Of a DNA stretch of 64,000 nt, positions 5,500-31,998 are shown piece after piece; the first letter of the stretch is position 1; every line of letters starts with the position of its first letter. The DNA is from a phage, in sequence record PX880100.1. One strand, written 5' to 3'. A program made the position numbers and the translations under genes. The notes under the pieces are model-generated. The model saw nothing but the letters and a program-made list of their open reading frames with translations. It did no database searches and was not told where the DNA came from.

Positions 5500-7374
5500 T
5501 TATTTAGCTCGAATATCCTGATGTTTCACCCTGCCCATAACCTCGTGCTGTTTGCCGGGGTTAAATGGACGAGCACCCGGATTTCCAAGATACCCACAAA
5601 CTCGACGAGTTACTTCAAGAGTTTCGGGGTCATGATTACCACAGATAGGGCACTTAAATCCATCTTCGGATGCTATTGTTTCACCTAAGAATCCACATTT
5701 ACCACAAGAATCCACTGGAGTATTAATACCGAAGTAATGAACCTTACTAGCCGCATAATTAATAACCCATTCCAGTGCATCTGGGAATCGTTTCATATCC
5801 GGTAGTTCTACATAGGAAATGCACCCACCAGAAGCAATCGGAGTAAAGTTAGACTCATAATCAAATTTCACGTTAGGAGCAACTTTACGTTCCACATCAA
5901 GGTGGTGAGAGTTAGTGTAGTATCCTTTGGACAGAATATCTTCATGCTCCGGGAAATATTCACGGTCTAGACGACAAAAACGGTCGCATAGGGATTCTGA
6001 TGGTGTAGCATACAGACTATAACCTAGTTTAGTTTCTTCCTTCTTCTGATCGACTCTATCCCGCATGTACTGCAATACACGCTGAACAAACTTGATGCAG
6101 GTCTCGGACATTGTGTCTACATCTTTGCCAAACATGAACTGTAGCATTTCATGGCAGCCAATATACCCTAGAGATACAGAAGCACGGTTATAGAAATGAT
6201 CGAATACATATTCCTCAGGCCCCAAGCGTAACCCAAAGGCTCCTGACATATAGAGGATGGGTGCAGCTTTAGCTTGAATGTATTTTAAGCGATCAACTCT
6301 CCACTCCAACGCTTTTAATGCTGTATCCACACGTAGCTCAAGCAAATCAAAGAATAGGTCAATATTTCCCTCAGCTTCGATAGCAATTCTAGGCAAGTTT
6401 ACAGAAACAACACCTAAGTTATTACGACCGGCAGTTTCACCATCTTCTGTAGCAGCTAGGAATGAACGACAGCCCATAGAAACTTTGTAGTCCCCAGTAA
6501 CTTCCACAACCTTATCATAGCTGATATAATCTGGATACATACGTTCAGCAGTACATTTCATAGCTAACTTCTTGATGTCATAATTAACATCTCCTGGTTT
6601 CATGTTAACACCATCACGAAGTACAAATACCAGTTTCGGGAAGATAGCTGTACGTTTATTGATACCTAAACCATCCATGCGTACTTTCAGTATTGCTTTC
6701 TGTACTAGACGTGCTTCCCAAGAAGTTCCTAGACCAAAACCAAAGGTAATAAATGGACTCTGACCGTTAGAGTTGAACATTGTATTGATTTCATACTCTA
6801 GACCCTGACAGGCATCATAGACTTCCTTTTCAGTCATCTCCGTAGCCATTACTGATGCTTTGGCTTCATCCTTAGTCCAACGTTTTGCAAACGCATGATT
6901 TTTGTCATAGGATTTACGAACATAAGGGGCTAATACTTCATCAAGGCGATCTACAGAAGTACCACCATACTGATGGGAGCTAACCTGAGTGATAATCTGA
7001 GCAGTAATAGCCGCCGCAGTAGTAATAGAGTTTGGAGTGCTAATTTCAGCATTACCAACCTTCATACCATTCTTCAACATATCTTCCAGAGCTACCAGAC
7101 AACAGTTAGTCATGCCTAATGCAGCATAATCAGCATCATGGAAATGAATATCCCCAATCATATGAGCATTTCGAATCTGAATTGGCATTTCTTCTAGAAT
7201 CAGATACTTACTCAATTCACCTGCAAGCATATCCCTTTGTGTAGGGAAACGTTCTGAGGGTTTATTAGCATTATTAAACAGCAGCTCTTCATCTGCTGAC
7301 CCTTCGATAATCTCTTTGCAGTTTCTAATTAACGCCTGCATTTCTTTATACTTTAGTTCTTCATTGCGATTCAT
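5500..7374 (-). CDS. nrdD: anaerobic ribonucleoside-triphosphate reductase (class III RNR)
   Basis: 624 aa; C-terminal CPICG...RRVCGYLG zinc ribbon plus glycyl radical motif. Confidence 0.9.
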   Translation of the reverse strand: MNRNEELKYKEMQALIRNCKEIIEGSADEELLFNNANKPSERFPTQRDMLAGELSKYLILEEMPIQIRNAHMIGDIHFHDADYAALGMTNCCLVALEDMLKNGMKVGNAEISTPNSITTAAAITAQIITQVSSHQYGGTSVDRLDEVLAPYVRKSYDKNHAFAKRWTKDEAKASVMATEMTEKEVYDACQGLEYEINTMFNSNGQSPFITFGFGLGTSWEARLVQKAILKVRMDGLGINKRTAIFPKLVFVLRDGVNMKPGDVNYDIKKLAMKCTAERMYPDYISYDKVVEVTGDYKVSMGCRSFLAATEDGETAGRNNLGVVSVNLPRIAIEAEGNIDLFFDLLELRVDTALKALEWRVDRLKYIQAKAAPILYMSGAFGLRLGPEEYVFDHFYNRASVSLGYIGCHEMLQFMFGKDVDTMSETCIKFVQRVLQYMRDRVDQKKEETKLGYSLYATPSESLCDRFCRLDREYFPEHEDILSKGYYTNSHHLDVERKVAPNVKFDYESNFTPIASGGCISYVELPDMKRFPDALEWVINYAASKVHYFGINTPVDSCGKCGFLGETIASEDGFKCPICGNHDPETLEVTRRVCGYLGNPGARPFNPGKQHEVMGRVKHQDIRAK

Positions 7375-7403
7375 TATACTCTCCTTCTCTAACTAAGACT
7401 ACT

Positions 7404-7432
7404 ATTATAACTCATTCGAGGGCGGATGTCAA
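7404..7432 (-). promoter_or_regulatory. sigma70-type promoter for nrdD operon
   Basis: TTGACA-17 bp-TATAAT on minus strand. Confidence 0.6.
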
Positions 7433-7483
7433 CAATATTTTACTATAAAGTTCTGTAACATGATCTGAGTCAAAAAATTTTAT

Positions 7484-7512
7484 TTGCCAATCTCTATTAA
7501 AAATTGTATAAT
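7484..7512 (+). promoter_or_regulatory. sigma70-type promoter (rightward)
   Basis: TTGCCA-17 bp-TATAAT. Confidence 0.5.
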
Positions 7513-7623
7513 CACGCACTCGTGCACGCGATATAAAATGATTATCTAGTATCACACATCTCACGTTAAAAGCAAGCAAATTTTTTATTTAAATGCAATA
7601 TCATAGGCTTATTTAAAATTGTA

Positions 7624-7652
7624 GTTGCTTTTTACTGTATATATTGGTATAA
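7624..7652 (+). promoter_or_regulatory. early promoter upstream of phoH
   Basis: TTGCTT-17 bp-TATAAT. Confidence 0.55.
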
Positions 7653-7717
7653 TATATTTGTAAGTTGATAAACAAGATCTTTTTGTTGATCCTCTGTTAG
7701 CGAAGTACACTATAGGA

Positions 7718-8479
7718 GTGTTATTTATGGGAAAAGCACGTCAAAAAAGAGAGAACCGCAATGGTTCAAGAAAGCGTGGCAACAAGTATGAGAATAACGT
7801 AATTCAGGCTGATTTTTCTAATGATTACGCTAACCCAGTTGCTAAATCCCTAGTAGGTAAAAACCGCGAGCAAAAATCATATATCAATATGATCAAGAAC
7901 AACACAGTGACTGTGGGTATTGGTGAGCCAGGTACAGGTAAAACCTTTATTCCGTCTGTTCTTGCAGCTCAGGAACTTGTAGACATTCACTCAGATATTG
8001 AGCAAGTGATCCTCGTACGTCCTAATGAACCTCTAGGTAAGTCTCTTGGTATGCTTCCTGGTGATCTAGCGGAAAAGCTAGAGCCTTGGTTGGAGCCAAT
8101 AGCTGATGGTATGAAATGGGCCATCGGCGATCATGCATATAAAGGATATGTCGAACGTCAGAAAATTAAATTTTTGGCTATCGAACATGCTCGTGGCAGA
8201 ACTTTCAACAACTCCTATGTAATTGTCGACGAAGCTCAGAATATTTCCGTTGAGGCAATGATTTGTCTCCTAACTCGTGTAGGGCAAGACTGCCGTTTAA
8301 TTATCTGCGGAGATATAGCTCAGAAAGACATTAAAGGTGACTCAGGTCTAGCACTCCTTATGGAAGTCTATGAGAAATACGAAAATGCCCCCTTCTCAAT
8401 GATCGAATTGATTGATAACGTTCGTTCTGTTGAGTCTAAAGCATTCTATGATATTTTTAAAGACATGGGGAAGGTGTAA
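7718..8479 (+). CDS. phoH: PhoH-like ATPase
   Basis: Walker A GEPGTGKTF; Walker B VIVDEAQN. Confidence 0.85.
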   Translation: MLFMGKARQKRENRNGSRKRGNKYENNVIQADFSNDYANPVAKSLVGKNREQKSYINMIKNNTVTVGIGEPGTGKTFIPSVLAAQELVDIHSDIEQVILVRPNEPLGKSLGMLPGDLAEKLEPWLEPIADGMKWAIGDHAYKGYVERQKIKFLAIEHARGRTFNNSYVIVDEAQNISVEAMICLLTRVGQDCRLIICGDIAQKDIKGDSGLALLMEVYEKYENAPFSMIELIDNVRSVESKAFYDIFKDMGKV

Positions 8480-8480
8480 T

Positions 8481-8723: not shown

Positions 8724-8844
8724 TATACAGGGCCTGGGTATGAAAATACTCGGGCCTTTTCTATCAGAAAATTTTATTTGCCTAATGACCGATAATAAAG
8801 TAGAATATTCCTTAAATCCTGATAACTATAAAAAGGAAAGCCAA

Positions 8845-11175
8845 ATGAGCCATCGCATTGAAAAAGTAATTAAACGTGACGGTACTGTAGAAGACTTTGC
8901 TCCTGAAAAACTCAATGGTTGGGCAGAGTATGGTTGCAAAACAGTTGATGTAAGTTGGTCAGCCATTACTATGGCTGCTCAAAAAACTCTACCTAAAGGG
9001 GTTGTAGATTCCGATACTCTGATGGACGCATTAATTAAGGCTGCCGAAAGTCTTATCAAAGATAACCCAGCATATGATGTGCCCGCAAAGGAATTACGTC
9101 TTGCGCAAATGCGTAAACGTCTTTATGACTCTTTCGAACCGCCTTCTCTGCGCTTCTTCCACGACCATATGGTTAGCGTAGGTGCATGGGAAGACATGAG
9201 TGCATGGATTACCGATGAGCAATTTGAAGCTCTGAATCAGGTTATCGACCATGATCGTGACCGTCTTTTTACTAGTGGTGGACTGAAGCAGTTCTTTGAT
9301 AAGTATTCCCGGCGTAACATAGCCACTGGTGAAATTTATGAAACTCCGCAGTTTGCCTACATGGGTATGGCAATGGCGATGCTATCTCAACCTAACTGGA
9401 CAATTCTAGATGCAATCGACCTCTACAACGCAATGTCACTCCACAAAATCAACGTTCCTACGCCGCCACTGGTTGGTCTGCGCTCTAGTGACCGTGGATT
9501 TGCTAGTTGCTGCCTCGTGGATTCCACTGACACGTTGGATTCAATCGACACCGCCGAGCACATCGTCTTCAAAATGGTCGCAGCCAGAGCGGGAATCGGG
9601 TATCATCTTGAAAGCCGATCAATTGCTGATCCGGTGCGAAATGGGGCATTCCCGCATTCCGGAAAACTGCCATATTATCGACACATTGACCGCTCAGTAA
9701 AGGCTAATACTCAGCAAACTCGTGGTGGTTCTGCTACAGTGTCTTATCCATACTTCGATCCTGAAATCATTCAATTGATGCAGGTTAAGCAACAACGTGC
9801 TACAGATGAGAATAAAATCGATAAGATGGATTATTCTCTGAGCTTCAACAATCTTTTGTTAAAACGTTATCTGAAAAATGAAGATATTACGCTAATGTCA
9901 TACTTCTATGCTCCAGAAGTTCATGAAGCGTTTTATAGTGATGACGAGGCTAAATTTGAAGAAATCTACGTGGCAGCGGAGAAACGTGTGGCATCTCTTA
10001 CAAAGATCGACCACGAAGGAAAAACAGTTCCAGCAGCTCCTAAAGTCTGTGCAAAAGAAATCCTAGATACTTGGCTACGTATCCGAATGGAAACAGGACG
10101 TATGTATGCTCATCACATCGGGGAATCTAATCGTCACGGTAACTTCCTTGATCCGATCCGTATGACAAACCTTTGTGTTGAAATTACTCAGCCTACACGC
10201 CCGTTCCATCATATCACAGAGCTGTATAAGACAAAAGAGCAGCTTGATCAAATGAAGCCGGAGGATATTGGTGAAGTATCTCTGTGTAACTTAGGTGGTG
10301 TTGTACTTGGACGCATGGAATCTCTGGCTGAGTGGGAAAAAACTTGCTACATCCTTCTGAAATTCGTTGATACAATTATTGAAATTCAGGATTATCCATT
10401 CCCAACTATGGAATATACGGCTAAGAAACGTCGTAATGTTGGTATTGGCCTGATGAACGCAGCAGGTGCAATGGCAGCAGAAGGTCTGGCTTATGAAGGT
10501 ATTGAAGCCCGTAACTGGATTCACCGTGAGGCTGAAAAACTGTCTTACTTTCTGCATAAAGCCTCTGTACGCCTAGCTAAAGAACAGGGTGCATGTGAGT
10601 GGTTTGATCGTACTAAACCATCTAAAGGAATTCTGGTAATCGACACTTACAAGAAAACTGTTGATGAACTGGTATCCGTAGGTCTAGAAATGGATTGGGA
10701 GTCTCTGCGTGCAGATATTCTGAAATATGGTATGCGTAACTCTGTTCTGACTGCTCAGATGCCGGGAGAAAGTTCTTCTGTTCTGTTAGGTGTTACTAAC
10801 TCTATTGAACCGCCTCGTAAGATTGTATCTATCAAAGGTAGTGCAGTGAATAAAGTAATTGCAATTGCTCCGGGTGCAACCGATTGGGAAACGTTAATGA
10901 GCTATAAACTGGCTTATGATGTAGATCGTATTGAGTGGATCAAATGGGTAGCAACTATGCAGAAATTCTTCAGTCAGTCTATCAGTACGAATATGTACTA
11001 TGACTACACCAAGTTTGAGAATGAAATCATTCCTGGCCCAGTAGTAGTTCGTGATTTCATGACTGCTGTTAAGTATGGTTGGAAGACTTTCTATTACGCA
11101 AACTTCAACACCGCTAATGGTGGTGGTGCAGGAGAAGAATCCGCAGGCTGCGCTTCTGGTGGTTGTACCATCTAA
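8845..11175 (+). CDS. nrdA: ribonucleoside-diphosphate reductase large subunit (class Ia)
   Basis: ATP-cone-like N-terminus; NLCVEI active-site region; start trimmed to ATG with upstream AAGGAAAG. Confidence 0.9.
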   Translation: MSHRIEKVIKRDGTVEDFAPEKLNGWAEYGCKTVDVSWSAITMAAQKTLPKGVVDSDTLMDALIKAAESLIKDNPAYDVPAKELRLAQMRKRLYDSFEPPSLRFFHDHMVSVGAWEDMSAWITDEQFEALNQVIDHDRDRLFTSGGLKQFFDKYSRRNIATGEIYETPQFAYMGMAMAMLSQPNWTILDAIDLYNAMSLHKINVPTPPLVGLRSSDRGFASCCLVDSTDTLDSIDTAEHIVFKMVAARAGIGYHLESRSIADPVRNGAFPHSGKLPYYRHIDRSVKANTQQTRGGSATVSYPYFDPEIIQLMQVKQQRATDENKIDKMDYSLSFNNLLLKRYLKNEDITLMSYFYAPEVHEAFYSDDEAKFEEIYVAAEKRVASLTKIDHEGKTVPAAPKVCAKEILDTWLRIRMETGRMYAHHIGESNRHGNFLDPIRMTNLCVEITQPTRPFHHITELYKTKEQLDQMKPEDIGEVSLCNLGGVVLGRMESLAEWEKTCYILLKFVDTIIEIQDYPFPTMEYTAKKRRNVGIGLMNAAGAMAAEGLAYEGIEARNWIHREAEKLSYFLHKASVRLAKEQGACEWFDRTKPSKGILVIDTYKKTVDELVSVGLEMDWESLRADILKYGMRNSVLTAQMPGESSSVLLGVTNSIEPPRKIVSIKGSAVNKVIAIAPGATDWETLMSYKLAYDVDRIEWIKWVATMQKFFSQSISTNMYYDYTKFENEIIPGPVVVRDFMTAVKYGWKTFYYANFNTANGGGAGEESAGCASGGCTI

Positions 11176-11234
11176 TATTAACAAGGGGACGTATGTCCCC
11201 TTTATTAGGCCTTTTATGGCTGTAATTTTAAATT

Positions 11235-11717
11235 ATGGAAGAAAAATACAAAGAAATAGCGGGGTTATTTGATTATAATCCAGAAACAGGGATATTTACC
11301 CATAAAGCTAGAGAAGATAAATCCTTCAATACTAGATTTGCTGGCAAAGAGGCTGGTTCTCTAGAAAAATGCTCTGGATATATTGTAATGCAAGTAAAAG
11401 GCACTAAGTATTACGCGCATATCCTAGCATTCCTTATCGTTAATGGGTATATTCCAAAAGAAGTAGATCACGATAATAGAATACGGCATGATAACCGAGC
11501 TATTAATTTAAAGGCCTCTGACAGACACAGTAATGGTAAAAATGTCGGGGCGCACAAAGATAATAAATTAGGTATTAAAAATATTCACCAAAAAGCTAGT
11601 GGATCTTACCAGGTACAGATAGCCCGTAAAGGTGTAAAATATACTAAAACATTCAAAGAACTTGAGGATGCTATAGAGTGGCGCGATATGAAACTATTGG
11701 AGCTTGATAGTTTATAA
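11235..11717 (+). CDS. HNH homing endonuclease with AP2-like DNA-binding domain
   Basis: HNH_3-like HILAFLIVNGY...DHDNRIRHDNRAINL; AP2-like SGSYQVQIARKGVKYTKTF; sits between nrdA and nrdB. Confidence 0.7.
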   Translation: MEEKYKEIAGLFDYNPETGIFTHKAREDKSFNTRFAGKEAGSLEKCSGYIVMQVKGTKYYAHILAFLIVNGYIPKEVDHDNRIRHDNRAINLKASDRHSNGKNVGAHKDNKLGIKNIHQKASGSYQVQIARKGVKYTKTFKELEDAIEWRDMKLLELDSL

Positions 11718-11783
11718 TTTTACTTGCTAATCGCTACCTGATTTGCTATAATATTCCTGAAATAGTGAGAAAGAGGAAAATCA

Positions 11784-12929
11784 ATGACTACTTTACTAAA
11801 CCTGAATTGGGATCATACTAACGCTGATCTTTTCCTGGGCGATTCTCTAGGTATCGCAGATTATGTACGTGTAGCACATCCAGAACTAGAACGTCTGGCA
11901 CTTCTGCAACGCTCTCAATTTTGGACTGAAACTGAAATCAGTCTGGAAGCAGATAAGAAACAATGGCCCAATCTCCCACGTGAAATCCAGGAAATCACAC
12001 TCCTGAACTTAGCATGGCAGACTCAAACAGATTCCTTTATCAGTCGTGCTCCTGAAGCAGCTATTATGCCGCTTGTAAGCCGTCCAGAATTGGAAGGTAT
12101 GCTCAAGCAGTGGAGCTATTTTGAAGACCTGCATAGTCGTGCTTATAGTAATATTATTCGTAATGTGCTGACTGATCCAGCAGAATTTATTGATTCTGTA
12201 ACCAAAAACCAAGAAGCATTCGCACGTATCGCTGATTCTGTTGAGCTGTTCGATGAACTGTACCAGTTAGGTCAGTATTTCATCGCGGTACGTGATCATC
12301 GTGGTGACAATACATATCCAGAAACTGAGTTCCCTGAAGTTAAGCGTGAAACTCAGGCTAAACTGTTAGATGCTTATTTTGCAATCTACGGTCTGGAAGC
12401 AATGCAGTTCTACGCATCCTTTGCATGTACTTTTGCTCTAGCAGAGAACGATATTCTGCAAGGTATTGCTAAAAATCTGCAATTAATCGCTAAAGATGAG
12501 GCTCTGCACACCCAGATGTCTAAAACAATCATCCAGATTATGTTCCAGCAGTTTGACAAAGATCTGGTAGATGAAGCAGTGGCTAAAGCACCAGCACAGC
12601 TCCTGAAAACTCTAAAAACTGAGATTGAATGGGGTCATTTCATTTTCAAAGGTCGTAGTCTGATTGGTTTGAATGCAGAACTTCTAGAAGAATACTTGTA
12701 CTTTGTGGGGCGTAATGCATTTATGCACATTGGTGTAGAATGGCCTAGTCACTTACCAGTAATCACTAAAAACCCTATTCCGTGGATCATGAACTGGTTG
12801 GATACTACTTCTCTACAGCCTGCTCCACAAGAAATCCAGATTGGTGCAGCCTACCGTGTAGGTCAGGTAACTGAGACCTCTACTGATACTCTGGAAGATC
12901 TGGGCAATGAATTTGGAGATTTCCTATGA
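11784..12929 (+). CDS. nrdB: ribonucleoside-diphosphate reductase small subunit
   Basis: 381 aa, ferritin-like R2 protein with EDEALHT iron-ligand region. Confidence 0.85.
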   Translation: MTTLLNLNWDHTNADLFLGDSLGIADYVRVAHPELERLALLQRSQFWTETEISLEADKKQWPNLPREIQEITLLNLAWQTQTDSFISRAPEAAIMPLVSRPELEGMLKQWSYFEDLHSRAYSNIIRNVLTDPAEFIDSVTKNQEAFARIADSVELFDELYQLGQYFIAVRDHRGDNTYPETEFPEVKRETQAKLLDAYFAIYGLEAMQFYASFACTFALAENDILQGIAKNLQLIAKDEALHTQMSKTIIQIMFQQFDKDLVDEAVAKAPAQLLKTLKTEIEWGHFIFKGRSLIGLNAELLEEYLYFVGRNAFMHIGVEWPSHLPVITKNPIPWIMNWLDTTSLQPAPQEIQIGAAYRVGQVTETSTDTLEDLGNEFGDFL

Positions 12930-23937: not shown

Positions 23938-24136
23938 TCCTGAAATTACCGCACAACGTTTCATGCTTAAAGGCATGATTGCTGAAGCAGGTATGACTCA
24001 AGAGGTTGCAGACTTTCATAAGCAAATTCTTGATATTATAACTCTAGCTAAAGAGACTGGAGAAAAAGAGCACGCAGCAGCAATTATGGCTATATCTCTT
24101 ATTAGTCTAGACTTGGCTGAAGAATCTGGAGTTTAG
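23930..24136 (+). CDS. hypothetical protein
   Basis: ORF track. Confidence 0.4.
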   Translation: MANPEITAQRFMLKGMIAEAGMTQEVADFHKQILDIITLAKETGEKEHAAAIMAISLISLDLAEESGV

Positions 24137-24226
24137 CTCCTCCAAATAGAATTTTTAAAAATGTACTTGCCTTTTGCTTTAAATTTCTGATATAATAGTT
24201 ATATAAATTGATGAAGGAGTTAACTA

Positions 24227-24502
24227 ATGCAAAATCGTGTTATAGCAACTGGTATTGAAAGTGCAATCTGTAAATCCTGGGAAGGCTGGGAAGGTGAGAT
24301 TGAATGGCTTTATTTCTATGATGTAGAACTTCTGCCGGAAGTTAAAGCTAAATGTGTTGAAGCTGGAATGGCTCCAGATGCAAAAGCTGATATTGATATT
24401 TCAATGTCTGAACTTAAAGGCCGTGTAATTACTGTTAGTGATGAGGGTGAAGAAGTTTTCGAACTTCCATTCTCCTTAACTGTCACTCCTAAGTTCGACT
24501 AA
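24227..24502 (+). CDS. hypothetical protein
   Basis: ORF track; promoter cassette and AAGGAG upstream. Confidence 0.45.
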   Translation: MQNRVIATGIESAICKSWEGWEGEIEWLYFYDVELLPEVKAKCVEAGMAPDAKADIDISMSELKGRVITVSDEGEEVFELPFSLTVTPKFD

Positions 24503-24584
24503 CTAATACAGCACTGAGCAAGTTCTTTAAAATTTGACTTGCTCAGTGCCTTAAAACTTGGTATAATAGTTATCTAATTTGGAA

Positions 24585-24634
24585 ACATATTTAAAAGTGT
24601 TTAAACTAGTATTTGAATACTTTTAAATATGTTG
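24585..24634. repeat. perfect palindrome, 15-bp arms (AACATATTTAAAAGT / ACTTTTAAATATGTT)
   Basis: Read directly; between promoter and tRNA-Tyr. Confidence 0.8.
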
Positions 24635-24735
24635 GATTAGTATCGTAGAGGTAGCGAAGCAGACTGTAAATCTGCCGACTCGGAAGGGTCTCGGGTGGTT
24701 CGACTCCATCATCCATCATCCATCATCCAACACCA
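24631..24735 (+). tRNA. tRNA-Tyr (anticodon GUA) with 14-nt heptamer expansion before the 3' acceptor strand
   Basis: Anticodon stem GCAGA/TCTGC; T-arm GGTGG-TTCGACT-CCATC; ATCCATC x2 inserted before ATCCAAC-A-CCA. Confidence 0.5.
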
Positions 24736-24742
24736 AATTTAA

Positions 24743-24819
24743 GTCCTGTTAGACAAACTGGTAAAGTCACTACCCTTTCAAGGTAGGATTTGCGGGTTCG
24801 ATCCCCGCACAGGACGCCA
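24743..24819 (+). tRNA. tRNA-Glu (anticodon UUC)
   Basis: Perfect acceptor and anticodon stems; T-arm GCGGG-TTCGATC-CCCGC; CCA. Confidence 0.7.
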
Positions 24820-24827
24820 ATTTCTGC

Positions 24828-24904
24828 ATTCCTAGAGTGTTACTGGACAGCATGTCGGTCTCCAAAATCGTACGGTCTAGGTTCGAGTCCTAGTAGGTTT
24901 GCCA
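24828..24904 (+). tRNA. tRNA-Trp (anticodon CCA)
   Basis: T-arm CTAGG-TTCGAGT-CCTAG; loop CTCCAAA; acceptor has two U-U mismatches. Confidence 0.5.
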
Positions 24905-24910
24905 AAATTT

Positions 24911-24985
24911 GCACCTTTAGCTGAGATGGATTAGCGCTTGCCTGAAGAGCTTGAGAGGTTCGTTCGATACGAACAGGGTGCACCA
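24911..24985 (+). tRNA. tRNA-Phe (anticodon GAA)
   Basis: Acceptor GCACCTT/AGGGTGC; T-arm GTTCG-TTCGATA-CGAAC; anticodon stem imperfect. Confidence 0.5.
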
Positions 24986-25002
24986 AATTGAGGGGGCTGC
25001 TG

Positions 25003-25275
25003 ATGCATCCTGAAAACTTCTTTATTTACTGCGCTGATAAGTCGCTGAAACGTAGAATTAACAAAGTCTATCATTATCGTGCTAGTCAACAGCCTTATGT
25101 ATATGCTTTTGACGGTGATCACATTCCATTAGAACAATTATCTTGTGATTACATGATATTGAAGAACTTTGACGAGACAAAGATCTCAAGCGTTCATAAT
25201 CGACAGAATCCCTTAACGTGGAAATATAAGAAGAAAAAGAAAGGCATCAAATTCTTAAAAAATGTAGTTGCTTAG
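25003..25275 (+). CDS. hypothetical protein
   Basis: Track ORF trimmed to first ATG after GAGGGGG, clear of tRNA-Phe. Confidence 0.4.
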   Translation: MHPENFFIYCADKSLKRRINKVYHYRASQQPYVYAFDGDHIPLEQLSCDYMILKNFDETKISSVHNRQNPLTWKYKKKKKGIKFLKNVVA

Positions 25276-25307
25276 TTTCCAAAAGTTCTGTATAATAATT
25301 ACATAAA

Positions 25308-25550
25308 TTGAACTGGAGAAGCAACATGACAGAACAAGAATTGAATGAACGTAAGCTGGTAATGCTCCGCTTACTAAACATTTTCTCTGGTATGGATGGG
25401 GGTATTGACTTTGTTCATCTACGTTCTTTTGTAGAAGAAGCAGAAGGTGAATCTATCACTAAAATCCTTAAACATATGGGTTTACTATTAGATGCTGCTG
25501 GTGTAGCAACGGAATATAACCTCGAAGATCTACCGGAGCGTATTAAATGA
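25308..25550 (+). CDS. hypothetical protein
   Basis: ORF track; promoter cassette and GGAGAAG upstream. Confidence 0.45.
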   Translation: MNWRSNMTEQELNERKLVMLRLLNIFSGMDGGIDFVHLRSFVEEAEGESITKILKHMGLLLDAAGVATEYNLEDLPERIK

Positions 25551-25735
25551 AGAAGCCAAAAGCTAAATTAGTTAAGTTCGACTGTTGTGACACAGAAATC
25601 TTATTCACTAAGTTTGGTGAATTTAAGATGTGTGAATGTGGAACATGTGGTTATGATCATGGTGATGGATATTATTGCAGGACTCTTGGACCAGCAAATC
25701 TAATCCACTTTTCATGGCCGGAAGATAAAGAATAA
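25547..25735 (+). CDS. small Cys-rich protein
   Basis: CC..., CECGTCGYDHGDGYYC; overlapping start. Confidence 0.4.
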   Translation: MKKPKAKLVKFDCCDTEILFTKFGEFKMCECGTCGYDHGDGYYCRTLGPANLIHFSWPEDKE

Positions 25736-25737
25736 TT

Positions 25738-25812
25738 GCATCCTTGTCCGAGTGGCTTAGGTGACGGTCTGCAAAATCGTCTAGGTTGGTTCAATTCCAG
25801 CAGGGTGCTCCA
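25738..25812 (+). tRNA. tRNA-Cys (anticodon GCA)
   Basis: Acceptor GCATCCT/AGGGTGC; loop CTGCAAA; T-arm GTTGG-TTCAATT-CCAGC; weak D-stem. Confidence 0.55.
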
Positions 25813-25818
25813 AATTCA

Positions 25819-25901
25819 GGGTCGTTAGCCAAGCGGTTTGGCGGTGGACTGTTAATCCATGTCGAAAGACAACGTAGGTTCGAATCCTACACGGCCCGCC
25901 A
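25819..25901 (+). tRNA. tRNA, anticodon GUU (Asn-type) with 13-nt variable arm
   Basis: Good D-stem and anticodon stem; T-arm GTAGG-TTCGAAT-CCTAC; CCA. Confidence 0.55.
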
Positions 25902-26003
25902 AATTCTGTGTAGAGTTAAGTAAACCGGTAGCCAACCAGCTATCATTGCTGACATCGAATTCAGCCACAGATACCATTTTCATTAATAACTGAGGAAACA
26001 AGC

Positions 26004-26189
26004 ATGTCCAAGAATGTAATTGCGCAGCTAGAAGTTCATCGTGATAGCACTATCAACAATATTGAAGTTGAGAAGAAATACATCGAAGAACTTAAACATG
26101 ATATACTAGTAAGTCTCAACCGTCTTAATGTACGAAAAGAGTTTCTTAAAGAACTTAATGCAGCTATTGAAAAACTCAAAGCTGAGTAA
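26004..26189 (+). CDS. hypothetical protein
   Basis: ORF track; GAGGAAA upstream. Confidence 0.4.
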   Translation: MSKNVIAQLEVHRDSTINNIEVEKKYIEELKHDILVSLNRLNVRKEFLKELNAAIEKLKAE

Positions 26190-26198
26190 ATGAATTAT

Positions 26199-26275
26199 GC
26201 GACCGGGGCTGGCTTGGTAATGGTACTCCCCTGTCACGGGAGGGAATGTGGGTTCAAATCCCATCGGTCGCGCCA
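26199..26275 (+). tRNA. tRNA-Asp (anticodon GUC)
   Basis: Perfect acceptor and anticodon stems; T-loop TTCAAAT; CCA. Confidence 0.7.
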
Positions 26276-26292
26276 AATAAGGTAGGTTAGCT

Positions 26293-26451
26293 ATGGAACG
26301 TAGAGAGTTTACTCCAGAAGAGATAGAGCAGATAAAAGAATCTGCTACGAAAAATGCTAGAATATCTCTGTCACTAGAAGGTATCATTATTAGTGATGTA
26401 AACTTTGAAAAAATCAAAGCCATAGCTGATGAACTGGAAAAAGTAATTTAA
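26293..26451 (+). CDS. hypothetical small protein (52 aa)
   Basis: Hand-translated between tRNA-Asp and tRNA-Lys. Confidence 0.35.
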   Translation: MERREFTPEEIEQIKESATKNARISLSLEGIIISDVNFEKIKAIADELEKVI

Positions 26452-26452
26452 T

Positions 26453-26528
26453 ACATCCATAGCTCAATGGTTAGAGCTACCGCCTCTTAAGCGGAGGGTT
26501 CTAGGTTCAAGTCCTAGTGGGTGTACCA
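26453..26528 (+). tRNA. tRNA-Lys (anticodon CUU)
   Basis: Canonical D-arm TAGCTCAATGGTTAGAGC; T-arm CTAGG-TTCAAGT-CCTAG; CCA. Confidence 0.7.
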
Positions 26529-26554
26529 AACTAAACTAGCACGAGAAATATACT

Positions 26555-26902
26555 ATGCGTAATGCTAAAGAAGAGTTGTTACTTGCCTTAAAAAATACTA
26601 ATTCTGAAGTTAAGTGTATTAAAATAGAATTCGGGTATTATGGGGACAAAAAAGTTTGGGTATTACCTCTGGGGTATACAGAAGAAGATATTGGGGATTT
26701 TCTTAATAACCTAGACTTTGAGTATGATTCTGGTTATGGTGGACAACTACTTTATGGTAATGTATGGTTTGCCGATGGAACCTGGCTAGAACGTGGGGAA
26801 TATGATGGAGCTGAGTGGTGGGAATACAAGGCTACTCCAGCAATTCCAGAGGAATGCCGAACAATTAATGGTGAAGTAGATAATACTTTAAGGTTAAACT
26901 AA
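26555..26902 (+). CDS. hypothetical protein
   Basis: ORF track. Confidence 0.45.
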   Translation: MRNAKEELLLALKNTNSEVKCIKIEFGYYGDKKVWVLPLGYTEEDIGDFLNNLDFEYDSGYGGQLLYGNVWFADGTWLERGEYDGAEWWEYKATPAIPEECRTINGEVDNTLRLN

Positions 26903-27295
26903 TAAAATTTCAGTGCAGAACACGGAGCTAGCAATTCGGAAGTGCTGACTCATGATAAGCTGCCTATGTACTTGCAAAGCGGTCGTGTCCAAGACTCGGA
27001 CTCTTGCACTGAAAACAATCAAACATTCTAGCGTGGTTGATGGGGAAACCAGCTTGGCTAGGGCAGAAGCTCGTTCGATTCGAGTGAAAGAATGGTTCTC
27101 GTAAGTCCGCACAAGTGATAATAGGTTCGAGTCCTGTCTAGAATGACACTATAAAGTTTACTTATTATGTAGGTTCCGATAGATCGGCGGGTCTATTCTG
27201 GCATTTAAGAGAGGTCTCGCAAACTTCTTTGTCAGCCGTGGGGTTGGTAGCCTCCAGGTGGCCTACACAATAAGTAAATTTATTAAAAATTCATT

Positions 27296-27324
27296 TGCTA
27301 TTTCTCTTAATTATCTGTATAATA
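27296..27324 (+). promoter_or_regulatory. N25-like early promoter driving tRNA-Pro/tRNA-CAU
   Basis: TTGCTA-17 bp-TATAAT; followed by SD plus ATG with only 3 codons, then tRNAs. Confidence 0.6.
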
Positions 27325-27518
27325 TATTTTATAAAGTGAAGAGAAGGAAAGCAAAATGAAACACAAGATAGCTCAAGTTTTTATGGCATTATGGTGTATG
27401 CCAATAGCTATAACAGCATTTAATCTAGATACTTTTACTATAGAAGAAAAATGTATCGGATTAGTTAGTGGCTTTAGTATGCTTGGCTTATCTTTGTTGT
27501 GGTTGAAGAAATAATATT

Positions 27519-27596
27519 CTCCGTGTAGCTCAGTTTGGCCAGAGCGTTTCGTTTGGGGCGATAGGGTCGGGGGTTCAAATCCTCCCACGGAGACCA
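27519..27596 (+). tRNA. tRNA-Pro (anticodon UGG)
   Basis: Acceptor CTCCGTG/CACGGAG; D-arm GCTC...GAGC; T-loop TTCAAAT; CCA. Confidence 0.6.
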
Positions 27597-27602
27597 AACA
27601 AT

Positions 27603-27680
27603 TGCGGGTTAGATCTCTGGTAGAGATCGCTAGTCTCATAAGCTAGAAAGAGGTAGGTTCGATTCCTGCACCCGCTTCCA
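27603..27680 (+). tRNA. tRNA with CAU anticodon (Met/fMet/Ile2)
   Basis: D-stem GATC/GATC; anticodon stem CTAGT/GCTAG; T-loop TTCGATT; CCA. Confidence 0.6.
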
Positions 27681-27700
27681 TTTTAATAGAGGATTTCGAA

Positions 27701-27868
27701 ATGAAAGTATTTCGATTAGTAGTAAGTGACAAACGCTTAGGTAAGAATACATCAAAATCCTTACTTGCTCATTATGGTAGAAATTGGGATGAAGTAATGG
27801 CAGAGTTTAGTACTAATCACTCTTACTTGAAAGTTCACTCTATTAAAGAAGTATACAATGGTTACTAA
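27701..27868 (+). CDS. hypothetical small protein (55 aa)
   Basis: Hand-translated; SD-like upstream; ends 2 nt before tRNA-Lys. Confidence 0.4.
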   Translation: MKVFRLVVSDKRLGKNTSKSLLAHYGRNWDEVMAEFSTNHSYLKVHSIKEVYNGY

Positions 27869-27869
27869 T

Positions 27870-27948
27870 AGATCGCTAGCTCAATAGGTTTAGTAGCATC
27901 CGACTTTTAATCGGAAGGTTCTGGGTTCAAGTCCCAGGCGATCTACCA
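27870..27948 (+). tRNA. tRNA-Lys (anticodon UUU)
   Basis: Perfect acceptor AGATCGC/GCGATCT; anticodon stem TCCGA/TCGGA; T-loop TTCAAGT; CCA. Confidence 0.7.
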
Positions 27949-27952
27949 ATTT

Positions 27953-28026
27953 GCTCGGTTAGTTTAATGGGAGAACCCCGTCTTTACATGGCGGTTGAGA
28001 TAGTTCGATTCTATCACCGGGTACCA
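27953..28026 (+). tRNA. tRNA-Val (anticodon UAC)
   Basis: T-arm GATAG-TTCGATT-CTATC; anticodon stem CCGTC/GGCGG; CCA. Confidence 0.65.
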
Positions 28027-28045
28027 ATTAACTCAAAATAAGGAA

Positions 28046-28405
28046 TTGCAAATGCAATTATCAAGCAAGATTCAAGGTTATTTCGGTCATGTGACAATGG
28101 AGTTCGCTATCTCTAAAGGTTGGGACTTCGAACAAGATTTAGCTGAGTTCTACAAAGATATTGATCTGAACGTACCGTACATGGGACTTTCTACTGGTCA
28201 GGAGATCACAGAAGCCGATGTATTCAAGGCAAGTCAAGGTGAGGTAACACCTAGTTTTGCCGAGTTCTGGTTAGGCATTACGTTAAAAGAAGATGCACCA
28301 GATAGTGGTGTACTAATGTCTAGTATGCACTCTGGAAGTTCCGATTACCTTTTCATTAGCGATGTTAAGGAAATACAAGAAGTCTGCAAAAATGTACTTG
28401 CTTGA
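28046..28405 (+). CDS. hypothetical protein
   Basis: ORF track; AAGGAAT upstream. Confidence 0.45.
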   Translation: MQMQLSSKIQGYFGHVTMEFAISKGWDFEQDLAEFYKDIDLNVPYMGLSTGQEITEADVFKASQGEVTPSFAEFWLGITLKEDAPDSGVLMSSMHSGSSDYLFISDVKEIQEVCKNVLA

Positions 28406-28664
28406 TGCTTAATTTCTTGTTATAATATTTATATAAATTGATGAGGAGAAATCCTCATCATAGTTCACTAAGGTATTAGCTCGACCTAGGACTGGCTGCC
28501 AAAAAGCACGATCCCTACGATTCGGGAGAAGTTCTAGATTGGTCCACTAGATTCAGCGGCAACTGAATAGTGTATTGGGTTTGCGAGATGACGTAGTTCC
28601 TTCCGCTCTAAGCGAAGGTGCTGTAGTTACGCCGAGCTAATAGCCTTAGTAAACTAAAGAATTT

Positions 28665-28743
28665 GGGGAATGGGTCTGCATGGAGTGGACACCTCGCTTG
28701 CACCGAGGACATCAGAACGGTTCGATTCCGTTATTCTCCACCA
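28665..28743 (+). tRNA. tRNA-Ala (anticodon UGC)
   Basis: Anticodon stem CCTCG/CGAGG; T-arm AACGG-TTCGATT-CCGTT; CCA. Confidence 0.65.
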
Positions 28744-28748
28744 AATAC

Positions 28749-28825
28749 GCGTGATTGATGGAATTGGCATACATACCGTCCTTAGAAGTCGGGTTTTGAG
28801 GGTTCGAATCCCTTGTCACGCACCA
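28749..28825 (+). tRNA. tRNA, anticodon UAG (Leu-type) with short variable arm
   Basis: Perfect acceptor GCGTGAT/GTCACGC; T-loop TTCGAAT; loop CTTAGAA. Confidence 0.5.
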
Positions 28826-28937
28826 AATTTGATGGTCAGAGTAAATTAAACCTACTATCTCGGTTGAGCTGTTTTAATGGGTTCGAATCCCAGCGAGGCG
28901 TAACTGCCTGGTGTGATAGAGGCATCATCTTATTATT

Positions 28938-29028
28938 GGAAGAGCAAATCGAATTGGCGACGAAAACCGCTTGGAAAGTGGCTGACTGGTAAAACGGCTT
29001 GAGAGTTCAAATCTCTCCTCTTCCGCCA
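28938..29028 (+). tRNA. tRNA-Ser (anticodon GGA), class II
   Basis: Perfect acceptor GGAAGAG/CTCTTCC; T-arm GAGAG-TTCAAAT-CTCTC; long variable arm; CCA. Confidence 0.6.
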
Positions 29029-29040
29029 AACAATTTATAT

Positions 29041-29135
29041 GGTAGGTCAATCCAATGGCTGGCGTGGGACTCCGACTTGAAATCGGTTGATCGTAGTGAT
29101 ACGGTGTAAGGGTTCGATCCCCTTACCTACCTCCA
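29041..29135 (+). tRNA. tRNA-Ser (anticodon UGA), class II
   Basis: Perfect acceptor GGTAGGT/ACCTACC; T-arm AAGGG-TTCGATC-CCCTT; 20-nt variable arm; CCA. Confidence 0.6.
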
Positions 29136-29501
29136 AATCTTGAAGTATGCCGGAATCGGTAGACGGGGCTGCCTAAAAGGTTTATAGGGAACATCCACTC
29201 CCTGCAACATACCCCATAAAGCGGCTGAGATAAATGGTCTATCTCGTGAAGGTTCAAGTCCTTCTGCTTCTTGATACATCAATGGCTCAAAGTGTAACGG
29301 CGCTATTTGATGCGCTTAGTAAGACTTCCCCGACATGCGTTCGGGAGTAAGCTGCTAAGGCTAGAGTAGAAGAGTTTCTGAGAGCCGCCACAATTGAAGA
29401 TTCGTACTCGTCTTGAGCTGCGTGCAATAGGAGATAACTTGATTAGTATTCTAGAACATGCTAATTGAGGAAGGTTTCGCTAACCCTGCGAGTTTTCAAT
29501 T

Positions 29502-29578
29502 GTGGCTATATCATAATTGGTTAATGATCCTGATTGTGAATCAGGCCTATGTGGATTCGAATTCCACTAGCCACCCCA
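29502..29578 (+). tRNA. tRNA-His (anticodon GUG)
   Basis: Perfect acceptor and anticodon stems; T-arm GTGGA-TTCGAAT-TCCAC; CCA. Confidence 0.7.
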
Positions 29579-29603
29579 AATTAACTTAAATAGGAAATAA
29601 AAT

Positions 29604-29798
29604 ATGGCTGATTTCTGCAAACAATGCTCCATTGATATGTGGGGCAGAGATACTGGTGATCTTTCTGGTTTGATTACAGAAGCTGAAGTTAAAGAAGGCT
29701 ACGGTGCTGTTGTGATTTGCGAGGGATGCGGAGTTATTCGAGTAGATCATGAAGGCAAACGTTTGGAAGAATCTGAGCCAACAACAATTTTTCCGTAG
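29604..29798 (+). CDS. small zinc-ribbon protein
   Basis: CKQC...CEGC; AGGAAAT upstream. Confidence 0.45.
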   Translation: MADFCKQCSIDMWGRDTGDLSGLITEAEVKEGYGAVVICEGCGVIRVDHEGKRLEESEPTTIFP

Positions 29799-29810
29799 AA
29801 TAAAAATTAT

Positions 29811-29886
29811 TGGGATGTAGATCAATTGGCAGATCGTCGGCCTCTGACTCCGAAGGCTCCACGTTCGATCCGTGGCATCCCAGCCA
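29811..29886 (+). tRNA. tRNA-Gln (anticodon CUG)
   Basis: Perfect acceptor TGGGATG/CATCCCA; D-stem GATC/GATC; T-arm CCACG-TTCGATC-CGTGG; CCA. Confidence 0.65.
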
Positions 29887-29892
29887 AATAAT

Positions 29893-29968
29893 TGGAGAGT
29901 AGTGTAACGGTTAGCACAACGGCCTTTGACTCCGTTAATGGTAGGTTCGATTCCTCCTTCTCCAGCCA
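29893..29968 (+). tRNA. tRNA-Gln (anticodon UUG)
   Basis: Paralogous anticodon arm to previous tRNA; T-loop TTCGATT; CCA. Confidence 0.6.
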
Positions 29969-29976
29969 AATAATAA

Positions 29977-30052
29977 GCGGTTAAGCACACGGGTTGTGTC
30001 GCAGGCCTTCCAAGCCTCGCTGAGTAGGGTTCGATTCCCTCTAGCCGCTCCA
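29977..30052 (+). tRNA. tRNA-Gly (anticodon UCC)
   Basis: Acceptor GCGGTTA/TAGCCGC; loop CTTCCAA; T-loop TTCGATT; CCA. Confidence 0.55.
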
Positions 30053-30068
30053 ACTTTAAGGGGACATT

Positions 30069-30290
30069 ATGCACGTTTTTGAGTTTCGTAATAAAAGTAC
30101 CGATAAACGAGTTATTGTTATCGGGGAAACATACCGAGCATACGAACAAACTGACGGCTCTGTTATCCTGAATGACGAAAAAGGAGGTTTTAGCTTTTAT
30201 CCCAAAGAAACTTACGAAGAATTTCGTACAAAGTTTCTTCTACCAGACTGGCTAGAAGTAGCGCAGCAACGAGAACCCGAAGATGGCTGA
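30069..30290 (+). CDS. hypothetical protein
   Basis: ORF track; SD-like AAGGGGA upstream. Confidence 0.45.
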   Translation: MHVFEFRNKSTDKRVIVIGETYRAYEQTDGSVILNDEKGGFSFYPKETYEEFRTKFLLPDWLEVAQQREPEDG

Positions 30291-30447
30291 TAACCTAAAA
30301 GTCAAGATCGATAAACAAAAGAAACGTGTCGAAGTAGAGATTGGTGAAGAACGTGTAGCCTTCACCTTTGAATTTCTACAACAAATGGCAATGACAGTTA
30401 TGACTGATAAGTCTCCTGTTATTGAAAAAGAAATCCCGTTGAAATAA
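30283..30447 (+). CDS. hypothetical small protein (54 aa)
   Basis: Hand-translated; ATG overlaps upstream stop (ATGGCTGA). Confidence 0.35.
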   Translation: MADNLKVKIDKQKKRVEVEIGEERVAFTFEFLQQMAMTVMTDKSPVIEKEIPLK

Positions 30448-30456
30448 CGGGCTATC

Positions 30457-30531
30457 GCTCCTAAAGCATTGTTGGCGATGCAGTTGCCTTGTAAGCATCT
30501 GAACCGGGTTCGATTCCTGGTGGGAGCACCA
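30457..30531 (+). tRNA. tRNA-Thr (anticodon UGU)
   Basis: D-stem GCAT/ATGC; T-arm CCGGG-TTCGATT-CCTGG; CCA. Confidence 0.6.
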
Positions 30532-30546
30532 AATTTAAAAATTCAT

Positions 30547-30575
30547 TTGCTTTCTCTCTTATTTCTTGTTATAAT
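30547..30575 (+). promoter_or_regulatory. N25-like early promoter
   Basis: TTGCTT-17 bp-TATAAT, then ATAAATTAATGAGAGGG. Confidence 0.65.
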
Positions 30576-30605
30576 ATTTATATAAATTAATGAGAGGGAA
30601 GCCAA

Positions 30606-30899
30606 ATGAAACGTTATCTTTCTGTTGTGTTCCAAACTGGTGGTCAGCGCTATACTTACGAATTTCCTGGCTCTTGGAAAGTCAAAGAAGGTGATCAAGT
30701 AGTTGTATTAACACCGCGTGACGGGTATAAGGTAGTAACGGTTAAGCAAGTATTTTCAAAAGACTATGAACCGTCTAAGTCTATTAACTATAAGATGATT
30801 CATGGTGTAGTTCGTCAAGTACCACGAGCGGAAGTCGAAATCAAAGTAGATAAAGATGATAAACTTAAATATACCTCTTGCATAGACGAGTTGCTATAA
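30606..30899 (+). CDS. hypothetical protein
   Basis: ORF track; promoter and SD upstream. Confidence 0.5.
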   Translation: MKRYLSVVFQTGGQRYTYEFPGSWKVKEGDQVVVLTPRDGYKVVTVKQVFSKDYEPSKSINYKMIHGVVRQVPRAEVEIKVDKDDKLKYTSCIDELL

Positions 30900-31105
30900 T
30901 GAGGATTACTTTTACAGAAAAGATTATGAGTAATGGTGTTATGATCATTACCGCATGGGACAGTAATCAGTGGTGTAGTGTTTCAGGTATTAAGCCTGAA
31001 GAACAAACACTAGAAAATATCTCAAAGATTAAGCGAAGAATGGCAGAACGTGCACGACTTCCAGGTGCACCTAGAAATGGCAAACGTTCTGCTGTGAAAT
31101 GTTAA
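30878..31105 (+). CDS. hypothetical protein
   Basis: ORF track; start uncertain. Confidence 0.35.
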   Translation: MHRRVAIMRITFTEKIMSNGVMIITAWDSNQWCSVSGIKPEEQTLENISKIKRRMAERARLPGAPRNGKRSAVKC

Positions 31106-31106
31106 T

Positions 31107-31183
31107 GCTTCGGTAGCTTAGCGATCTAAAGCACTCGGCTGATAACCGAGAGATCGGGGGTTTAAATCCCTCCCGGAGTACCA
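31107..31183 (+). tRNA. tRNA-Ile (anticodon GAU)
   Basis: Perfect anticodon stem CTCGG/CCGAG; T-loop TTTAAAT; CCA. Confidence 0.6.
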
Positions 31184-31279
31184 AATTTAGGAATTAAGAC
31201 TATGCGTCCAGGAAAGTTTAGAAAAGCTAATTGGTCTAAAGAGTATAAAGAATACTTACTTAGTCTAGTAAAACATAAC

Positions 31280-31355
31280 AGTTAGTTGGCAGAGTGGTTA
31301 TGCACCTCCTTCATACGGAGCGACTACAGTGGTTCAAATCCACTACTAACTACCA
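31280..31355 (+). tRNA. tRNA with CAU anticodon (Met/fMet/Ile2)
   Basis: Perfect acceptor AGTTAGT/ACTAACT; T-arm AGTGG-TTCAAAT-CCACT; CCA. Confidence 0.6.
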
Positions 31356-31392
31356 TTAAAACAGCTAGAGATAGCTAAATATAGGAGCAATT

Positions 31393-31587
31393 ATGTTAAC
31401 AGTTAAAATAATGTCCACTGATGGTGGTGAGCAGATTCATGTTGGTAAAAGCGTAGGGTTTAACCCCAGAAATAAAAGCATAGCTATTTCTGGAATAGAT
31501 CAAGCAATCTTCTTAAAAGAAGATGAAGTAGCATACGTTATGAACCAAACCGGTAAGACAGTTTCTGTATATCGTGGTAAACTATAG
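31393..31587 (+). CDS. hypothetical protein
   Basis: ORF track; AGGAGCAA upstream. Confidence 0.45.
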   Translation: MLTVKIMSTDGGEQIHVGKSVGFNPRNKSIAISGIDQAIFLKEDEVAYVMNQTGKTVSVYRGKL

Positions 31588-31629
31588 AGAATAAAGAGCT
31601 GAGCCAATTTCTAACATCAGGGAGATCTA

Positions 31630-31998
31630 ATGAAAGCATATCAAAATCTTAAATCTGGAGTAATCAACCTCGTTCATGAAAATCAGATCATTCAACTATA
31701 CTCCGATAACGGTGAACTTAAACAGAAAGTTCTAGTTGAAGACCTAGAAGGTATCACACCACAATTCGATCCCGAAGCCTTCCGTGAGGTCAAAGTGGAA
31801 GTCGCCCCTCAAATCGAAGGTGGTCAACACCTAAACGTCAATGTGTTAAGCCGTGATCAGCTTTTGGATGCGCAGAAACATCCTGAAAAATACCCTCAAT
31901 TAACTATCCGTGTTTCAGGGTACGCTGTACGTTTTAACGCACTGACGCGTGAACAACAGAACGACGTTATTAGTCGTACATTTACTCAGGCGATGTAA
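31630..31998 (+). CDS. grcA: autonomous glycyl radical cofactor (GrcA/YfiD-like)
   Basis: C-terminus [10 protein letters not shown]...[20 protein letters not shown] matches the glycyl-radical domain signature RVSGY. Confidence 0.75.

Follow-up and report, generated by a model that had tools for sequence, protein, structure and literature searches.

A 64,000-nt stretch of DNA from a T5-like phage (Tequintavirus; sequence record PX880100.1), referred to here as the window, carries genes for two glycyl-radical proteins. One is nrdD, which encodes a class III ribonucleotide reductase (RNR); the other encodes a 122-aa protein resembling GrcA (YfiD) of Escherichia coli, the 'spare part' that restores oxygen-cleaved pyruvate formate-lyase (PFL, the product of pflB). 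The window has 95 to 98% nucleotide identity to Tequintavirus genomes of Escherichia and Salmonella and is collinear with Escherichia phage SP15 (NC_048627.1). A preliminary description, made from the sequence alone, had reported both genes with their RVCGY and RVSGY motifs, and both are present, with nrdD on the minus strand. The features that carry the argument are the following.

5500..7374, minus strand: nrdD, class III (anaerobic) ribonucleoside-triphosphate reductase, 624 aa (Pfam NRDD, NCBIfam)
5590..5604, minus strand: RVCGY glycyl-radical motif of NrdD (residues 591-595; Gly594), aligned with E. coli Gly681 and the T4 radical glycine
5641..5706, minus strand: Zn-ribbon of NrdD (Cys557, Cys560, Cys575, Cys578), aligned with E. 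coli Cys644/647/662/665
6469..6477, minus strand: finger-loop Met300-Gly-Cys302 of NrdD, aligned with E. coli Met382/Cys384
31630..31998, plus strand: GrcA/YfiD-type autonomous glycyl-radical spare part, 122 aa (Pfam Gly_radical, E = 4e-18; phrog_1209)
31909..31923, plus strand: RVSGY motif, residues 94-98 (radical Gly97 at 31918-31920), read from the sequence

The product of nrdD is an intact class III enzyme. It matches Pfam NRDD at E = 4e-172 and passes the cut-offs of both NCBIfam models, with 842 bits against 657 for NF006732, the enterobacterial NrdD equivalog, and 587 bits against 326 for TIGR02487. The NF006732 match spans profile positions 87-706 of 712, indicating an NrdD without the N-terminal ATP-cone; the cone is likewise absent from T4 NrdD, whereas E. 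coli NrdD has one. Like T4 NrdD, such a protein would escape overall-activity control by dATP/ATP. The phage enzyme is 53% identical to the NrdD of E. coli and 50% to that of T4, and in the alignment with these two proteins all the catalytic residues of class III RNR are present. Cys302 is the thiyl-radical cysteine, Met300 the methionine typical of formate-using NrdDs, and Cys91 (the second active-site cysteine) and the Asn pair are also found, so that the catalytic set of the E. coli and T4 NrdD-NrdG systems (Cys, Met-x-Cys, Zn ribbon, RVCGY) is common to the phage protein. The Zn-ribbon is presumed to be the activase-contact module; its contact with NrdG is a conjecture put forward in PMC4493059. 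Between the window and SP15, nrdD differs at 56 synonymous and 2 nonsynonymous positions (dN/dS = 0.009), a mark of purifying selection that is very strong, and the nrdD region was found in about 460 related phage records. The low dN/dS argues that NrdD is in use, which in turn implies activation by a host enzyme.

The 122-aa protein carries a radical domain of the PFL type. This protein shares a block of 19 residues around Gly97, without a single difference, with PflB and GrcA of E. coli and the vs.6 product of phage T4, which bears out the near-identical flanks claimed at the outset. Over its last 61 residues the protein is identical to PflB 700-760 at 49 positions (80%) and to GrcA at 48, and BLASTP aligned its residues 51-122 with GrcA 54-127 at 74% identity. 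We considered a derivation of this C-terminus from pflB rather than from grcA, as the strings LLDA and TQAM might suggest, and rejected it: neither 49/61 versus 48/61 nor 75% versus 69-73% nucleotide identity, the latter figure varying with the method, is a meaningful difference. The preliminary description had made the assignment depend on the conserved glycine. Gly97 and 39 other columns (40 in total, including the whole radical loop) proved invariant in an alignment of 29 sequences from phage and bacterial homologues. The closest solved structures are YfiD (6OWR; E = 1.4e-30, by sequence) and PFL (E = 5e-27), and the top fold matches of an AlphaFold model are the same. The profile phrog_1209 is matched from end to end (residues 1-122 against positions 1-121 of 121; E = 8e-48). 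The reading of this gene as a GrcA-like spare glycyl-radical domain thus holds.

The likeness to GrcA and PFL is confined, by hidden Markov model (HMM), to the C-terminal ~70 residues. Neither pairwise search nor HMM found a match between the N-terminal ~50 residues and GrcA; in a multiple alignment the N-terminal half has weak common positions with GrcAs, and the alignment with some Vibrio GrcAs extends over 86% of the query. The gene as a whole evolves at a dN/dS of 0.06-0.10, with an omega (dN/dS) of 0.07-0.16 in the N-terminal half and 0-0.04 in the C-terminal half, so that purifying selection acts on the N-terminal half as well. The AlphaFold model has a mean pLDDT of 69.6 and a pTM of 0.37, and its meaningful matches come from the C-terminal domain only. 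The N-terminal half is modelled as weak beta-strands (pLDDT 60-79) with no fold match and is not trustworthy; the corresponding half of YfiD is disordered (PMC8683613).

Homologues of the 122-aa protein were found by tblastn in 1,586 phage records, many of which already name the product 'autonomous glycyl radical cofactor'. Scores were 90-100% for T5-like phages and about 53%, over the full length, for T4-like phages (vs.6). Eight IMG/VR 'viral' contigs retrieved with a GrcA-like query (L068-L070, L075, L077, L078, L080 and L081) carry a full-length PflB, and are likely to be bacterial or prophage-flanking sequence and not to hold phage spare parts. In T5 itself the orthologue is T5.056 (YP_006884.1; L033), with 95% amino acid identity, which the T5 reference record annotates as a 'putative acetyltransferase-related protein' with a glycine-radical domain (InterPro IPR001150). 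The T4 counterpart vs.6 (Y06I, NP_049730.1), annotated as GrcA, is built like the window protein, being ~120 aa long with an MKAYQ N-terminus and a PFL-type radical domain. The first 24 nt of the two genes are 92% identical, and their N-terminal halves show a weak similarity (29%, E = 3e-4).

In T4, the segment of vs.6 from nt 179 to nt 363, which ends exactly with the stop codon, matches nt 200-384 of E. coli grcA at 97.8% identity (L008 858-1220 against L003 2067-2450), and no similarity was found between the two genes outside this segment, in the N-terminal half or the flanks. The vs.6 gene is thus a mosaic, and the pattern indicates a recent host-to-phage (or reciprocal) exchange of the radical domain alone. 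In DNA, the T5-like gene reaches no more than 73-75% identity with grcA, pflB or vs.6, and so belongs to an older lineage that has evolved independently.

Both halves of this gene content were already known, from annotation, from comparative genomics and from the biochemistry of the T4 homologue. Dwivedi et al. (2013) reported that many phages have only nrdD along with nrdAB, and named T5 among the phages with nrdD and without nrdG. Wagner et al. (2001), as recounted in PMC8683613, showed that Y06I and YfiD are both radicalised by the PFL activating enzyme (PFL-AE) and restore oxygen-cleaved PFL. Andorfer et al. described these two as still the only validated PFL spare parts, and YfiD's N-terminal half as required for binding cleaved PFL (PMC8683613). 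T4, like the T5-like phages, is a virulent phage with both nrdD and a spare part; T4 also has its own nrdG, which the window phage does not. E. coli GrcA (P68066) has the identical 19-residue radical loop and is the top sequence and fold match of the window protein, for which activation by PflA and action on O2-cleaved PflB, as with GrcA, would be expected.

Both radical proteins need an activase, and we searched for one in the 64-kb window and in the rebuilt complete genome of SP15 (110,964 bp). Two small open reading frames (ORFs) deserve attention in this search, and the aerobic RNR genes of the window are listed with them.

5020..5400, minus strand: 126-aa acidic ORF, directly downstream of nrdD, at the position of nrdG in E. 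coli (phrog_11748)
32080..32394, plus strand: 104-aa Cys-motif ORF (CICSCWMCGDPRK), T5.055 orthologue, GTG start (motif scan; phrog_4499/6828)
8740-11175, plus strand: nrdA, class Ia (aerobic) RNR (ORF scan; annotation of collinear relatives)
11784-12929, plus strand: nrdB, class Ia (aerobic) RNR (ORF scan; annotation of collinear relatives)

Queried against the window by tblastn, the NrdG proteins of E. coli and T4 and the PflA of E. coli returned nothing better than E ~2, in agreement with the preliminary description, which had seen no nrdG there. An nrdG homologue elsewhere in the genome, a possibility it had raised itself, is absent from SP15: the complete genome gave no similarity to NrdG or PflA at E <= 0.1 (one match to T4 NrdG at 0.13 is noise), and the annotation of SP15 lists no activase. 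No cognate nrdG adjoins nrdD or occurs in SP15, which sets this system apart from the NrdD-NrdG pairs of E. coli and T4. We counted as an activase a protein of about 150 aa or more with CxxxCxxC inside a Radical_SAM or Fer4_12 domain, and no ORF in the window is of this kind. The preliminary statement that a CxxxCxxC activase is lacking therefore stands as to the activase and fails as to the motif: a six-frame scan of the window found one CxxxCxxC in a sizeable ORF, the CICSCWMC of the 104-aa ORF directly downstream of the spare-part gene, which is not a radical-SAM (S-adenosylmethionine) protein. In SP15 the only other CxxxCxxC in stop-free segments of at least 60 aa sits in a segment of 76 aa.

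These searches bear directly on the possibility that the phage encodes a non-canonical or unrecognised activase, in a small conserved ORF or in the ~45 kb of the genome outside the window, and has no need of host NrdG or PflA. The conserved Cys4 cluster beside the spare-part gene, which literally fits CxxxCxxC, and the conserved 126-aa ORF in the place of nrdG both invite this reading. We examined each as a candidate and rejected it. The 104-aa protein has no match to Radical_SAM, Fer4_12 or Fer4_14 even at E <= 1, no Pfam match at all, and, next to the 154-156 aa of NrdG, lacks the length for a radical-SAM core. The 126-aa protein matches phrog_11748 only, with no Pfam family; its 24 homologue clusters, apparently from T5-like phages, share a single invariant cysteine (Cys12), too few for an Fe-S activase, and it is unrelated to NrdG. 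Together with the SP15 result, this makes an activase of the phage's own improbable, although it is the best surviving of the alternatives. With no activase in the window or in SP15, dependence on host activases (NrdG and PflA), as the preliminary description had proposed, is the best and most economical reading of the data. For the spare part, the reading is backed by the published finding that E. coli PFL-AE activates T4 Y06I (Wagner et al. 2001, as recounted in PMC8683613).

On this evidence we think it probable that this virulent T5-like phage has a functional nrdD and a PFL-type spare part that are both served by host activases. NrdD, of the formate-using E. coli/T4 type, would supply deoxynucleoside triphosphates (dNTPs) once oxygen falls below what the class Ia NrdAB of the phage needs, and its glycyl radical would be installed by the NrdG already present in the host. 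Host PflA would place a radical on Gly97 of the 122-aa protein, and the radicalised module would dock onto host PflB that oxygen has cut at Gly734, bringing PFL activity back. The diverged N-terminal half probably aids the binding of damaged PflB, as it does for YfiD. Activases work catalytically, so the PflA and NrdG present before infection could suffice. Both T5 and T4 break down the DNA of the host and stop its gene expression; an infected host would thus be unable to induce grcA or to replace damaged PflB, and a phage copy may be useful for this reason. PFL kept alive in this way would sustain acetyl-CoA and ATP, as well as formate, the reductant of this type of NrdD, and in that case the two phage genes would act together. 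Infection under anaerobic or oxygen-fluctuating conditions, which the preliminary description had suggested, is a reasonable ecological setting for such a system. Virulent enterobacterial phages would then be investing in oxygen-labile radical enzymes while borrowing the activases of their hosts, and this may bear on the replication of phages, therapeutic T5-likes included, in the low-oxygen gut.

Several observations weigh against this interpretation. Beyond the window, the absence of an activase is read from one relative, SP15. The 122-aa protein scores 121 bits with TIGR04365, the NCBIfam model of GrcA (InterPro IPR011140), over residues 50-122 only and below the cut-off of 170, and it also falls short of the GrcA3 model (117 bits; cut-off, 158) and the GrcA2 model (90.7 bits; cut-off, 145); it belongs to a diverged phage branch and is not a strict GrcA equivalog. 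The C-terminal half of T4 Y06I is identical to host GrcA at 59 of 61 positions, and the window protein differs at 12-13 of the 61. On the phage side, Y06I is the one protein for which rescue of PFL was shown (PMC8683613), and we found no experimental test of T5.056 in the searchable literature. We infer that host NrdG activates a phage NrdD with 53% identity to its own partner; T4 keeps its own nrdG, and host NrdG may therefore not always be adequate. In likeness to the host protein, the Zn-ribbon/Gly-loop module of NrdD gave 64%, against 53% for the catalytic core (p = 0.12). The comparison does not discriminate as to a host-adapted activase contact, since the bias recurs where a phage has an nrdG: in jumbo-phage NrdDs with their own nrdG it is equal or stronger (ratios of 1.23-1.36), with T4 alone lower (0.81), and the count of '19/22 versus 13/22' carries no weight.

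It is also conceivable that the 122-aa protein is a spare module for NrdD of the phage (or of the host) after cleavage by oxygen, and not for PflB. NrdD is likewise a glycyl-radical enzyme, spare parts for other glycyl-radical enzymes have been the subject of speculation (PMC8683613), and in some jumbo phages a GrcA-like gene lies between nrdD and nrdG, 10 bp after nrdD. The protein itself speaks for PflB. It has no similarity detectable by BLASTP to phage NrdD or E. coli NrdD, there is no NrdD chain among its 34 matches in the PDB, and it lacks the Zn-ribbon that precedes the radical loop of NrdD. Its 19-residue loop is that of PflB and stays the same in phage lineages with NrdD loops that differ from one another, and the T4 homologue rescues PFL (PMC8683613). 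Repair of NrdD is therefore very unlikely. The lack of NrdD similarity and of a Zn-ribbon, together with the PflB-identical loop, leads us to infer that the spare part, whose target enzyme the preliminary description had not specified, would serve host PflB with host PflA as its activase.

A third possibility is that the protein acts against the host, as a decoy, sequestering PflA or occupying PflB and so redirecting pyruvate or SAM. Inhibitory mimics are common in phages, and a protein that keeps the exact recognition loop of PflA must compete with PflB for this enzyme. The pattern of constraint is, however, the one that a catalytically competent module needs, with the whole docking domain conserved (the 40 invariant columns) and an omega of ~0.01-0.04 in the C-terminal half, and the T4 homologue restores PFL activity and does not block it (PMC8683613). 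We give a decoy slightly less credence still than repair of NrdD. Finally, the suggestion that nrdD is a decaying relic, non-working after loss of its activase, could appeal to the absence of nrdG from the window and SP15, and is effectively refuted by the selection signature (dN/dS of 0.009); the catalytic residues are also intact, and the region is shared by those ~460 related phage records.

What is fresh in this study is that phage spare-part genes are associated with RNR genes at the level of the operon, along with a hypothesis on formate supply that this suggests. K64-1-like jumbo phages have the order nrdD-grc-nrdG, as does a related contig of 43.6 kb (L009, L010 and L013); here the GrcA-like gene begins 10 bp after nrdD and an nrdG-type radical-SAM gene lies beyond it; the same order is found in L042-L044. 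Two phage contigs of 225-235 kb (L072 and L093) have a gapless nrdA-nrdB-nrdD-nrdG-grc, and Vibrio phage D479 (L011) has nrdA-nrdB-grc. With three different arrangements, the association has more than one origin. Only immediate adjacency to RNR genes was counted: an RNR gene within 10 kb was found at about 16 of 43 non-T5 phage loci, which is about chance level in T4-like genomes. Every NrdD checked at these loci (L009, L013, L072 and L093) has the Met-Gly-Cys finger loop. The NrdDs of the K64-1-like jumbo phages (L009 8185-9990 and L013 8185-9990) have RVSGY, with the serine of PFL, in place of the usual RVCGY, and a PFL-type GrcA-like gene adjoins them.

Fermenting cells obtain their formate mainly from PFL. 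In most characterised NrdDs, formate is the source of reducing equivalents (PMC4493059). By analogy, we put forward tentatively, as a possibility that we rate as somewhat less than even, that phage spare parts, far from being stray metabolic morons, are a component of an anaerobic dNTP-supply module, in which PFL kept active during oxygen exposure and after host shut-off would provide ATP, and formate for a Met-type NrdD. This would account both for the insertions into RNR operons and for the possession of both genes by T4- and T5-type phages. Two considerations tell against it. Other cellular sources of formate exist besides PFL, and the spare-part gene lies ~24 kb from nrdD in the window, with distances of ~17-24 kb in this phage and T4, so that the operons of other phages are indirect evidence here. 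We found no statement of a formate link between a spare part and NrdD in the searchable literature. If true, the idea would tie central fermentation to the synthesis of viral DNA precursors, and would give this phage gene family a phenotype that is easy to test.

The remaining features surround the spare-part gene.

31280..31355, plus strand: tRNA-Met (CAU), last of 24 tRNAs (ARAGORN)
31393..31587, plus strand: 64-aa ORF between the last tRNA and the spare-part gene (phrog_3909, E = 2e-36)
31620..31624, plus strand: Shine-Dalgarno sequence GGGAG, ending 5 nt before the spare-part ATG (from the sequence)
32406..32438, plus strand: terminator-like hairpin CCCCAG...CTGGGG followed by TTTTT, at the end of the gene run (from the sequence)

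ARAGORN placed 24 tRNA genes in the window, all on the plus strand, at 21307-31355. The preliminary description had set the spare-part gene inside this tRNA array; it lies outside, about 275 nt past the last tRNA, and belongs to the same run of same-strand genes. Its place is that of T5.056, which in T5 follows the last tRNA-Met and precedes T5.055, a Cys-motif ORF, and a terminator. The window differs from T5 in the extra 64-aa ORF that separates tRNA-Met from the spare-part gene: T5 has no equivalent of this ORF annotated at the same place, and its tRNA-Met abuts T5.056, so that the ORF looks like a small indel difference within the tRNA region. A promoter scan around the spare-part gene gave 6 sites, against 7.9 expected from shuffles, and is therefore uninformative. 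The nrdD gene is flanked by a Sir2-like gene (3823-4638, minus strand) and a PhoH-like gene (7718-8479, plus strand), and the order Sir2-like, nrdD, PhoH-like and then nrdA/nrdB (8740-12929) is the same as that reported for T5, SPC35 and EPS7.

The 104-aa ORF has AGGAG 7 nt ahead of its GTG start. Its N-terminal ~70 aa and its cysteines are conserved among T5-like phages and its C-terminal tail is variable; with a basic N-terminus and the Cys4 cluster CICSCWMCG(D/N)PRK, the product is probably a small zinc-binding protein. The annotation of SP15 splits this region into two smaller ORFs. At the place equivalent to the hairpin at 32406-32438, T5 annotates a rho-independent terminator, and the equivalent unit in T5 runs from promoter P11 to this terminator.

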